A stretch of DNA of 63,854 nt, counting the filler, from Collodictyon triciliatum (Eukaryota): assembly GCA_043381765.1 (NCBI GenBank). It is 23 parts of 23 records of this genome, joined end to end, with 100 filler letters (N's around TTAATTAATTAA, not from the genome) between each part and the next. Parts side by side here need not be neighbours in the genome. Positions count along the whole stretch, not along the records: positions 1 to 2,640 come from JBHJMP010008532.1; 22 more parts are not named here. The stretch is one strand, 5' to 3'. Shown here one piece after another: positions 1-2,640 of this stretch. Under the pieces are notes generated by a model. It was not told the DNA's origin and made no database searches. It was given only the letters and a program-made list of their open reading frames with translations. The translations under genes and the position numbers were made by a program. The stretch's first letter is position 1; each line of letters starts with the position of its first letter.

Positions 1-27
1 TAATGTTGGCGCGCCAGGGTAAGATGT

Positions 28-426
28 TTATTCTGCTTCTACGTCGCTTAAGTGGTCTGAATCATAATCGTAATTTAATGTGCGTTTTTCTCCCACCGCC
101 ACAAATCCAATGCATGAATTTTCTAAGTAATATTTTTCTCTGTCAGAAGGTTCAACCCCCTGCTGCATATTGTTCGCGATATCGGTTATTTTTAAAAAAG
201 ATGATTGTAGGGACAGAGGGTCAAAAACCCGATCGACTGTCTTATAAAATTCAGCAATTGAAATAGATTGCTTCCCCCTAAATTCAAATATGAACCCCAG
301 CCAGTCAATTTTATAAAAATTATGGGTACGTACTTCGCCATAATAATCAATAAATTCCACGAAAATAATTTCAATTTTAAGGCCGTCAAAAGCAAAAGAG
401 AAAATTTGTCGCTTGCTGGAGTTCAT
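28..426 (-). CDS. Hypothetical protein (132 aa) in the virus-like contig
   Basis: Intronless ATG-to-stop ORF, co-oriented with and closely following the three upstream ORFs. No recognised motif. Confidence 0.55.
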   Translation of the reverse strand: MNSSKRQIFSFAFDGLKIEIIFVEFIDYYGEVRTHNFYKIDWLGFIFEFRGKQSISIAEFYKTVDRVFDPLSLQSSFLKITDIANNMQQGVEPSDREKYYLENSCIGFVAVGEKRTLNYDYDSDHLSDVEAE

Positions 427-500
427 CCTACTCTGGCAAATTTTAAAATTCTGGAATTTAAACGCACTTGCATTTTTTCGACAGAATCATTTTCCAAAAT

Positions 501-812
501 TCACCACAAATAATTCCAACTCCAAAACAACGCGCTGCTTGGGTCGTCCTTAATTTTTTCATACTGATCCCCAAACCTTGCACGGAAATTATCCAGGCGT
601 TTTTTATCAGTATGGTCATACTGAGAGTACTGTTTAAACTTATCTTTGTAATGCTCCATGCCAAGCGCCCCGAATCGTACCGGGGACCGTTCCACGCCTT
701 TATCAACTATATAAACGACATATTTATGTTTTCCGTTGTTTGCTTTTTTAACTCTATAAGATACATTATTTATTTTTAGATTTTTGTGCCAGTCCATAAA
801 CATACTAAACAT
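501..812 (-). CDS. Tlr6F/DUF5754-like small basic viral protein
   Basis: Pattern KHKYVV...VRFGALGMEHYKD...DHTDKKRLDNFRARF...SALFWSWNYLW* resembles the K-K-Y...FG..GY.DY..H.D..R...Y..RH...S..W....LW family recalled from Polinton-like viruses, virophages and NCLDVs. Confidence 0.7.
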   Translation of the reverse strand: MFSMFMDWHKNLKINNVSYRVKKANNGKHKYVVYIVDKGVERSPVRFGALGMEHYKDKFKQYSQYDHTDKKRLDNFRARFGDQYEKIKDDPSSALFWSWNYLW

Positions 813-972
813 TTATTTTTTCATCTAACGAACTCTCAGGACTAGGTTCACGCGTTTCCATCACGCTACCACAACACTGAGACTTACGAACGTGTTTTAA
901 ATAATACTTCATCGCACGCTCAGCAATCAAACACAAGTTAATAATCAACGATACAATCAACACCGGGTCCAT
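805..972 (-). CDS. Small single-TM viral-type protein with S-x-CCG motif
   Basis: MDPVLIVSLIINLCLIAERAMKYYLKHVRKSQCCGS: hydrophobic N-terminal helix, then a basic stretch and CCG. Packed between the fibre gene and the Tlr6F-like gene. Confidence 0.6.
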   Translation of the reverse strand: MDPVLIVSLIINLCLIAERAMKYYLKHVRKSQCCGSVMETREPSPESSLDEKINV

Positions 973-988
973 ACAATAAAAAAGAAAA

Positions 989-2640
989 TTATGAAAGTTC
1001 ATAAAGATGCCACGCGTGGCCTCCTGCTATTCTATCTCTGAAAACACACTTCCAATATTTATATACAGCTTCATTAGCAGCAACCACATCAGCATTGCTA
1101 CTCCCACTAATAGTTGTTTGGGCTGATCCTCTATTAATTCGTAAATCAACTGATGTGTCATTTTTAAAATTAACTTTACCAGTAAGCGTTGAAGATGTTG
1201 CAAGGTAAAATGTAAAACCATCATAGTCCTCTTGACTGCCTCCTTGTGTAACTAAATTTTTAAATGCAACTGTTGTAGTATTTTCACGAGTTAATAAAAC
1301 TTCCTCCGGTGTATTTCGGTCCACTACAAAATCACCAGCTACACCGCTCACAAGTCCATTAAATTTAGTATTCGTTGCTCTTTGTTTATAAACACCTCTG
1401 TCAATAACAACCCAGTACGGATTTGTTCCACCATTCCAAACAAACACACCTGTAATTCTAAACTCATTCATCGGTCTTGAAAATGTATGAACCTGTCCAG
1501 CTGTTGAACCATCCACACCGATAGCACCTGACCTGACTTTTACAAATGAACCGGCAAGCGAAAGAGTCACTGCAACACCAAAGTTGTTTAAGTCACCTGT
1601 TAACATAAATTCAAATTCAAAGCCATCGTATGATTGACCCATATTGCCAAGTGTAATATTCTTTTGTGATGAAATAGAATTAGATATAAGTGTTGTTGCG
1701 GGTCCTGTATTGCCTGAATCATACACGTATGCTGTACTGCTATTAGATGCAATCACCACGGTTTTTTTGGCTACTTGAGGGGTTGATATACTACCTGATA
1801 TTGTTCCACTCACTGAAAGGTCTCCTGTTATACTCATACCTGTGTTTGATATATTGGCACGTTGTGTCGCATTTGTCCCAAAGGATATATTGTCATTTGT
1901 ACCCCATATGCCACTGACTGGCGCAGTTATGTCACCAAAAAATAAATGTGGGGCAGTTGCACTTGGAGCAGGATTTGTTCTACTTAGATTTAATGAATTT
2001 GTTACAGTCACATAATTGTCATCGACCCTAAATCTTTCTACAGCATCTGGTCTACCAGCGGTACTTCCTGCTATATTTGAAACAGAGTTTGTTGATATAG
2101 CTACTGCTCCAATTGCAGGACTATATATTCCTTGTCTATTAGTATTATTTCGATTAGCATCACTTGAGTCATAATTTCGAAATGTGTAAGCTTGAGCAGC
2201 TGCTGTTCCTGGTTGATTCAACACAAAACCTGTCGTGGCAATTATAATACTACTTGCAGATATATAATTATTTACAGTTAATGGAACAGATATAGTACTA
2301 CCAGCAGAATCCCACGTCTGTCTTGTGACATTTCCAGTTATAAGACTCATAGTATTATTTGATGAAGATCCATGAATTCCTGTATTGCTGTTGAGTATTC
2401 TTAAACCGCCGTTACCGCCGCTGCTTACTCGAATCATATCTACGGTTGGTTCGTTACTAAATGCGTATGTACCCACTCCAGTTGAGTTTAAAAGTTGTTG
2501 AGCCCCTGATGGAGTCGGGACCTGGTTCACTGTATCCCAAAAAACTGATGAGCCATTTGTTTCAAGAAATTTTCCAGCCTGTCCAGCCTGTGGAGGCAGC
2601 TCAGCATCGACTGCTGTGTACTCGTATCCAGTTGCCTGGG
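989..2640 (-). CDS. Tail-fibre/virion-fibre-like protein, 5'-truncated
   Basis: The frame is open from the contig edge (QATGYEYTAVDAELPPQAGQAGKFLETNGSSVFWDTVNQ...). It contains the LPxQxGxxGKFLxTNG..W fibre motif and three G-I...(L/I)x(F/I)xTN..xRxx(I/V) repeats. G/S/T/N-rich and intronless. Confidence 0.7.

Follow-up and report, generated by a model that had tools for sequence, protein, structure and literature searches.

A contig in the Collodictyon triciliatum assembly most likely derived from a Polinton-like virus and carrying part of a mosaic fibre gene

INTRODUCTION

Polinton-like viruses (PLVs) have genomes of ~14 to 40 kb, often with terminal inverted repeats, and for most of their clades no host is known, abundant though these viruses are in fresh water. 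A PLV piece in a eukaryote assembly may be a contaminant to flag or a hint of a host. The preprint describing the isolated PLV PgVV-14T (bioRxiv 10.1101/2022.07.28.501842) counts Tlr6F among its core genes and assigns its longest open reading frame (ORF) to a phage-like fibre protein, which is found in virions and has been proposed to mediate attachment. The PgVV-14T and Gezel-14T-type PLVs (Phaeocystis globosa virus virophage) are described there as small viruses that encode a double jelly-roll capsid protein and a penton, together with an A32 ATPase, Tlr6F and a long fibre. The use of bacteriophage-like fibre proteins by PLVs is also reported in PMC12220804, and Yutin et al. 2015 (PMC4642659) describe Tlr6F from almost every PLV, from many "Megavirales" and from several virophages, as well as from some phages. 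Here we analyze a 2,640-nucleotide (nt) contig that opens a 63,854-nt stretch of the Collodictyon triciliatum assembly (GCA_043381765.1), and we compare its genes, above all a truncated fibre gene and a Tlr6F-like gene, with those of these viruses.

RESULTS

The window, by which we mean the whole 63,854-nt stretch (positions 1-63854), consists of 23 separate contigs of ~2.6-2.7 kb each; because these were joined artificially by 22 spacers of the form N44-TTAATTAATTAA-N44, the adjacency of contigs within it carries no meaning. For the first contig (1-2640; G+C content, 38%), a preliminary description had noted four co-oriented minus-strand ORFs without microsatellites, set apart from host-like contigs in the rest of the window. 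ORF calls and Tandem Repeats Finder confirmed this picture: ORFs were found at 28-426 (132 amino acids [aa]), 501-812 (103 aa), 805-1002 (65 aa) and 989-2530, zero tandem-repeat rows fell within 1-2640, and all four ORFs are conserved elsewhere. Products of eukaryotic type on other contigs (a protein kinase, a TCP-1 exon fragment and WD40 repeats), together with the simple repeats in which most of those contigs begin or end, bore out their host-like character. Only the extent of the large ORF had to be amended. Positions 989-2638 hold 549 codons without a stop, and the frame is open to the contig end; the gene is therefore truncated at its 5' end.

Translation, relatives and alignment indicate that this truncated ORF is the 3' part of a fibre or receptor-binding gene (989-2640, minus strand; 549 codons plus stop), such that the window carries the C-terminal 549 residues of a ~740-aa fibre-like protein. 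Nineteen relatives were detected at E<=0.001 among 8,000 scored candidates, with lengths of 366-910 aa and a Pfam domain in none of the 19; apart from a 366-aa fragment (P0018), these homologues are 710-910 aa long. We aligned 18 of the 19, leaving out that fragment, together with translations of the loci L001 and L003. The alignment contains a conserved N-terminal region of ~95 residues, of which only the last ~45 lie on the window contig, a middle region or shaft in which blocks are present, absent or swapped among relatives in mosaic fashion, and a conserved C-terminal head of ~260 residues. The protein, with its high content of Thr, Ser, Gly and Asn, had no match in Pfam, PHROG, PDB sequences or 50,697 phage records and no relative in 185,579 prokaryote genomes, and a scan of IMG/VR with it returned nothing.

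In an AlphaFold model of the fibre protein, the C-terminal part is all-beta and moderately confident. In VIA, residues 290-418 could be superposed on the capsid spike of Pseudomonas phage Pa223 and on N-terminal domains of TSP4, a tailspike of phage CBA120 (Z 8.7; root-mean-square deviation [rmsd], 2.7-3.0 Å over 98-102 residues). Z values near 8.7 are common for models without a true match and mark the noise limit, so that the fold match is consistent with a virion spike or fibre, and no more. Matches of the model in BFVD (template modeling [TM] score, 0.10-0.27) were discarded and given zero weight.

The virus class is assigned from gene context: relatives of the fibre gene adjoin a penton-like gene and the gene of a double jelly-roll capsid protein. 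Since the fibre and Tlr6F alignments were too variable for pattern scans, single proteins served as queries; when metagenomes were scanned with the fibre protein, 46 pattern stretches were matched and 8 loci confirmed. At two of these, L006 and L008, a 593-aa gene (P0078) is followed by an opposite-strand Lys/Glu-rich gene, a 291-aa penton-like gene (P0079) and, beginning 16 nt after the latter, the fibre gene. The N-terminus encoded by this fibre gene is shared by the full-length fibre relatives P0006, P0013 and P0023, and residues 2-41 of the window fibre are 83% identical to it (80.7% DNA identity over 119 nt).

The 593-aa protein had 29 relatives, 26 of which were aligned for modeling (P0080, P0090 and P0098 were left out). 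The resulting model (predicted local distance difference test score [pLDDT], 78.9; predicted TM score [pTM], 0.83) gave 241 Foldseek matches in PDB at E<=0.001, and all the best ones were double jelly-roll capsid proteins: Singapore grouper iridovirus (8hif, 3.7e-15), mavirus (6g44, 5.5e-14) and Sputnik (3j26, 1.4e-13), with further matches to the capsid proteins of Paramecium bursaria chlorella virus 1 (PBCV-1), African swine fever virus (ASFV) and faustovirus. In BFVD the best match reached 7.6e-19, and the list holds virophage (Qinghai Lake), adintovirus and many giant-virus capsid proteins. On the strength of this model, P0078 is a predicted double jelly-roll major capsid protein. It had no Pfam match at E<=1, the capsid family of nucleocytoplasmic large DNA viruses (NCLDVs) included, and no sequence-level match to solved virophage capsid proteins. 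The penton-like protein had no Pfam or PDB sequence match, PHROG has no family for the capsid, penton or fibre proteins, and when the fibre, capsid, penton and Tlr6F profiles were searched against the sequences of solved structures, none gave a match.

A more distant relative, L009 (IMG/VR; 12,855 bp), has the same gene order, namely a ~140-aa protein, capsid, opposite-strand Lys/Glu-rich gene, penton-like gene, fibre and a DUF5754 gene (43.8 bits) adjoining the fibre gene. Identities are 33% for the capsid protein, 46% for the penton-like protein and 38% between the fibre N-terminus and P0006 (3e-10). Further genes of L009 are Pox_A32 (55.5 bits), a D5_N primase-helicase, ThyX and GIY-YIG; taken together with the capsid, penton-like, fibre and DUF5754 genes, they make up the set described for PLVs and virophages. 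L009 was the only locus retrieved from IMG/VR with the capsid profile; single-sequence scans with P0078 or with the Tlr6F-like protein found nothing there. In another locus, L011, the C-terminus of an ATPase lies upstream of the capsid gene. Contigs of 7,285 bp are recorded for both P0013 (fibre) and P0090 (capsid), and contigs of 24,938 bp for both P0023 (fibre) and P0087 (capsid); we infer that each pair of records refers to one contig, and the 24,938-bp records suggest genomes of at least 25 kb for the clade. P0083 and P0086 are placed on a contig of 16 kb.

Two features of the relatives were noted in passing. Between capsid and penton, the opposite strand always carries the gene of the Lys/Glu-rich low-complexity protein (L006, 2251-2763; L009, 6053-6634; L010, 2212-2616; all minus strand), a position kept across relatives whose capsid proteins are only 33% identical. 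An AT-rich motif near AAAAATAATATATAA stands 5-20 nt before the starts of the 347-aa, penton, fibre and DUF5754 genes of L009 (3619, minus; 6644, plus; 7582, plus; 9313, minus) and is a candidate shared, perhaps late, promoter; an equivalent motif is not evident in the window contig, nor is any shared promoter motif upstream of its genes.

Next to the fibre gene and the small gene that follows it, the 103-aa product (501-812, minus strand; 98 aa if translation starts at 797; isoelectric point [pI], 9.7) was classified from Pfam, phmmer and alignment as a Tlr6F-like, DUF5754-related basic protein. In a library of 1.84 billion proteins, 54 relatives were found at E<=0.001, and 49 of them were aligned with the query after the long fused proteins P0027, P0030, P0034 and P0048 and a 62-aa fragment (P0057) had been left out. 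DUF5754 (PF19058) is matched at E<=0.01 by 43 of the 50 aligned sequences, with a best value of 3e-12. Seven of the ten best relatives match the family and two pass its cut-off (P0028, 30.1 bits; P0029, 42.9 bits), and phmmer reaches both from the window protein (P0002) at 7.5e-11 and 8.6e-09, respectively. The alignment has the conserved pattern F-G ... Y..D ... H.D..R ... W-x-x-x-L-W. The window protein resembles DUF5754 proteins in being small and basic, in its residue pattern and in its PLV-type gene neighborhood, whereas the 49-position Pfam model fits the N-terminal half of its subfamily poorly. The resemblance to Tlr6F/DUF5754 proposed in the preliminary description therefore stands as homology through relatives and falls short as a direct Pfam assignment, the score lying under the threshold; the protein is a divergent Tlr6F-like relative rather than a curated DUF5754 member. 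By itself Tlr6F leaves the virus class unfixed, because giant viruses and some phages have it too (PMC4642659; phrog_7595). P0027, P0030 and P0034 are longer proteins (241-412 aa) in which the Tlr6F-like part is the C-terminal domain; DUF5872 is present as well in P0027 and P0030, and a 2-cysteine adaptor domain in P0030.

Between these two genes lies that of a small membrane protein (805-1002, minus strand; 65 aa, or 55 aa if translation starts at 972), conserved in L001-L004, where it likewise follows directly on the fibre gene. A single hydrophobic helix at the N-terminus, with 19-residue hydrophobic windows of up to 2.14, is followed by a charged tail, and the protein belongs to no Pfam family. 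The order fibre, membrane protein, Tlr6F is retained in L003 and L004 at 79% DNA identity; in L003, blastn aligned window positions 497-1782 (1,286 bases) at this level. Protein identities to the L003 copies are 89% (103 aa) and 87% (65 aa). Synonymous codon differences exceed residue changes in both genes (17 versus 11 over 98 codons compared in the 103-aa gene; 11 versus 7 over 54 in the 65-aa gene), which indicates purifying selection. The small ORFs appear to overlap their neighbors by 8 and 14 nt. Homologue starts align to M6 (797) in the 103-aa gene and M11 (972) in the 65-aa gene rather than to 812 and 1002, and the overlaps may therefore not be real; even with the later starts, the genes are packed within a few bases of one another.

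Synteny ends in the intergenic spacer beyond the Tlr6F-like gene (427-500), where the blastn match to L003 and L004 stops at window base 497. Past this point, L003 and L004 encode a D12-class N6-adenine DNA methyltransferase (PF02086, 2.4e-13; L003, 2025-2315; L004, 1180-1728), and the window instead has the 132-aa ORF (28-426, minus strand), an acidic orphan (pI, 4.7) and accessory gene with one relative, 65% identical over the full length, and no match in Pfam, PHROG or the protein Atlas. To judge from these sequences, the position after Tlr6F looks like a variable accessory slot that differs between strains.

Set beside the described systems, the clade of the window contig has the PgVV-14T gene set (capsid, penton-like, A32, Tlr6F and fibre) in its relatives, a likeness of gene content. 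It differs from PgVV-14T in being a freshwater clade, and its fibre family has its own conserved N-terminus and head with no Pfam match; T4 gp36-like repeats were not detected. Virophages (Sputnik and mavirus; Lavidaviridae) are alike in capsid fold and size, in the adjacent penton-like gene and in the A32-type ATPase of L009, but a cysteine protease or integrase was seen in none of the clade loci, all of which are partial, and there is no sequence-level match. With bacteriophage tail fibres and tailspikes (CBA120 TSP4, Pa223 capsid spike) the fibre shares an all-beta, Ser/Thr/Gly/Asn-rich and modular build, and we take its N-terminal motif "PPQAGQAGKFLETNG..W" to resemble phage fibre motifs; however, there is no sequence homology to phage records or PHROG, and the gene stands beside penton-like and double jelly-roll capsid genes, not tail genes.

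The contig was also compared with phages directly. Neither its DNA nor its proteins matched any of the 50,697 phage records, and no terminase, portal or tail gene was found in the 11 related loci, the sole "terminase" match being that of the L009 A32-type ATPase to phrog_2666. The ordinary bacterial chromosome or tailed phage that had been named beforehand as the finding that would speak against a eukaryotic virus was thus not encountered.

Parts of contig 1-2640 occur in 20 of 24 listed sequencing runs from 13 studies, at 5-41% of the sampled words each. All runs with an organism label are environmental metagenomes, mostly freshwater, riverine or aquatic (one aquaculture, one subsurface); four have no label. 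None of the 24 holds half or more of the words of the contig, and therefore none was taken as its source. Run X1 contains a 907-nt contig over 869-1775 with 9 differences, and run X5 a 974-nt contig that is identical over 2521-2640 and extends beyond the contig end. Other pieces are 85-95% identical or broken at the shaft, in keeping with mosaic strains that make up a population. Near-identical virus DNA thus circulates in fresh water. In four runs compared with the contig, 1-88, 177-352 and 2377-2464 were uncovered, from which we draw no conclusion. A metatranscriptome run (X12) holds pieces of the fibre and membrane protein genes, which is not proof of transcription, library DNA being possible.

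No host junction is present on contig 1-2640. When 19 PLV-type proteins (from L004, L006, L008 and L009) were compared with the whole window by tblastn, no match at E<=0.01 appeared, and hence no further viral gene was detected in the other 22 contigs, in a test so insensitive that it missed the window's own Tlr6F-like gene with the L009 copy.

The remaining contigs yielded a few observations of their own. Besides the spacers, N runs occur inside contigs at 12467-12834 and 39093-39394. In the contig at 8222-10859, where a calcineurin-like phosphoesterase fragment is encoded (Metallophos, 23.9 bits), G+C rises to 74% in one 1-kb stretch, versus 22-55% elsewhere in the window; the assembly may contain DNA of more than one organism or of very uneven composition. 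At 35533-38157 (plus strand), an uninterrupted 875-aa ORF with a pentapeptide-like N-terminus and repeated C-terminal units runs into the contig end; ~12 near-identical 45-residue WD40 units correspond to a 135-bp tandem repeat (11.9 copies, 86% matches). For one host ORF, the protein Atlas gave no usable match, and Rfam found zero RNA families in the window.

DISCUSSION

We conclude that contig 1-2640 is probably a fragment of a small eukaryotic double-stranded DNA virus with a double jelly-roll capsid, most likely a PLV. The preliminary description had left the choice at a PLV or virophage, and the capsid fold and penton-like gene beside the fibre relatives, with the A32 ATPase and D5-like helicase in L009, support it in that. 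A number of observations weigh against our conclusion. As had already been remarked for all but the penton, no capsid, penton, packaging ATPase, polymerase or integrase gene is on the contig. The double jelly-roll capsid protein is established through the syntenic relatives L006 and L008, and the A32 packaging ATPase through the distant L009. The class is accordingly assigned via relatives, and fibre genes are modular and can move between virus types. The fold matches of P0078 are only moderate (TM score, 0.42-0.56; rmsd, 8.5-14 Å), and P0079 is called penton-like from its position between the capsid and fibre genes and its homology to the L009 gene at the same position (46% identity, 2e-89). 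The fibre model is poor overall (pLDDT, 60.5; pTM, 0.36), and its best structural matches are bacteriophage spike or tailspike domains, within the usual noise range. The 103-aa protein scores 18.1 bits against DUF5754 (E 0.0028), and because this falls under the 27.4-bit gathering cut-off, we call it Tlr6F-like and not a curated member; its two closest relatives, P0024 and P0025, have no Pfam match, and it matches phrog_7595 at 5e-06. Finally, L007 joins the virus module to bacterial-looking genes (alkaline-phosphatase-like), and the capsid profile matched two 2.9-kb contigs (L010 and L011) of one pond metagenome-assembled genome (MAG) labeled Bacteroidetes.

These last links bear on the idea that the module belongs to a tailless, tectivirus-like double jelly-roll virus of bacteria, for example of Bacteroidota. 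Besides L007, two more ENA loci, L002 (NrdR) and L008 (dehydratase-like tail), link the module with genes of bacterial type, the fibre head has a noise-limit Z likeness to phage spike and tailspike domains, the phrog_7595 match points the same way, and the capsid protein of Gluconobacter phage GC1 appears at rank 46 in BFVD. Yet L002, L007 and L008 change from virus-type to bacterial-type sequence mid-gene, and because the switch falls inside genes, we read them as chimeric. Adapter-derived peptides of a well-known kind, encoded at the ends of L002 and L006, add to this; all four loci look like chimeric assemblies and are unfit for host inference. The pond contigs hold virus-type genes only (A32 C-terminus, ~140-aa protein, capsid, Lys/Glu-rich protein and penton N-terminus), with two different capsid genes, which makes mis-binning the likelier explanation, and their place in a Bacteroidetes MAG is probably due to it. 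With no fibre relative among prokaryote genomes or phage records, an A32 ATPase and D5-like helicase in L009 that point to eukaryotic viruses, and best capsid matches that are all to eukaryotic viruses, a bacterial virus is the least probable reading that we weighed.

Scarcely more credible, and still very unlikely, is that the contig belongs to a giant virus (Nucleocytoviricota) genome or is a mis-binned part of such a genome. The MAG label of L009 is that of a giant virus, one fibre relative (P0007) is on an 83-kb contig, and some Tlr6F-like relatives are fused to DUF5872 and a 2-cysteine adaptor domain, which we presume to be typical of giant viruses. Tlr6F is also common in "Megavirales" (PMC4642659). 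The capsid protein, however, lacks a match to the NCLDV capsid family, most related contigs are 2-25 kb, and L009 fits capsid, penton, ATPase, helicase and Tlr6F into 12.9 kb, a small-virus layout. A true virophage (Lavidaviridae or Maveriviricetes type), dependent on a giant virus, we rate as unlikely, though less so than the two preceding readings. Its core genes are four, including a Ulp1-like cysteine maturation protease, and neither the 10 L009 proteins that were scanned nor the other loci showed a cysteine protease, which is weak evidence given that all loci are partial; at sequence level, moreover, the capsid protein matches no solved virophage counterpart. For a virophage speak the capsid model, which fits mavirus and Sputnik as well as iridovirus, the sixth rank of the Qinghai Lake virophage capsid in BFVD, and the capsid protein's 593 aa, presumably within the virophage size range. 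The giant-virus label of L009 would fit as well, as would its AT-rich motif repeated before several genes, which we assume to resemble the borrowing of giant-virus promoters by virophages. We regard a PLV as more likely than a virophage.

If the contig is of PLV origin, it would represent the distal end of a virion (late) gene module. The gene order in the clade would run from the A32 ATPase, after an interval, to the ~140-aa protein, the major capsid protein, the opposite-strand Lys/Glu-rich protein, penton, fibre, membrane protein, Tlr6F-like protein and a variable accessory gene, the window holding the part from the fibre gene onward. We propose that the fibre is anchored at the capsid vertex by its conserved N-terminal ~95 residues, beside the penton, whose gene precedes it, and that the conserved all-beta C-terminal head binds the host cell; exchange of shaft modules between strains could then diversify host range. 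The Tlr6F-like basic protein probably acts in or near the virion, possibly binding nucleic acid, and the small membrane protein may act at a membrane during entry or assembly.

Freshwater occurrence fits both a free virus and an element that is integrated into the genome of some common protist. Because the contig has no host junction, we somewhat favor free or protist-associated virus DNA co-sequenced with the eukaryote over a fixed insertion. That it reflects a live association of the sequenced eukaryote, or of a co-living protist, with a widespread freshwater PLV clade without a known host is a doubtful proposition, which we put forward tentatively.

The fragment is an ordinary additional member of a known virus group, and it leaves the current understanding of PLVs unchanged; its interest is modest unless the host link is real. 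What the comparison defines is a conserved late-module layout (capsid, penton, fibre, membrane protein and Tlr6F) and a fibre family whose anchor and head are fixed and whose shaft is mosaic, both of which could aid the annotation of similar fragments. Should the association prove true, and the virus be integrated or replicating there, a host would be supplied for this PLV clade. It would also offer a system for experiments on a fibre family whose specificity changes through exchange of the shaft modules that lie between fixed capsid anchor and fixed head.

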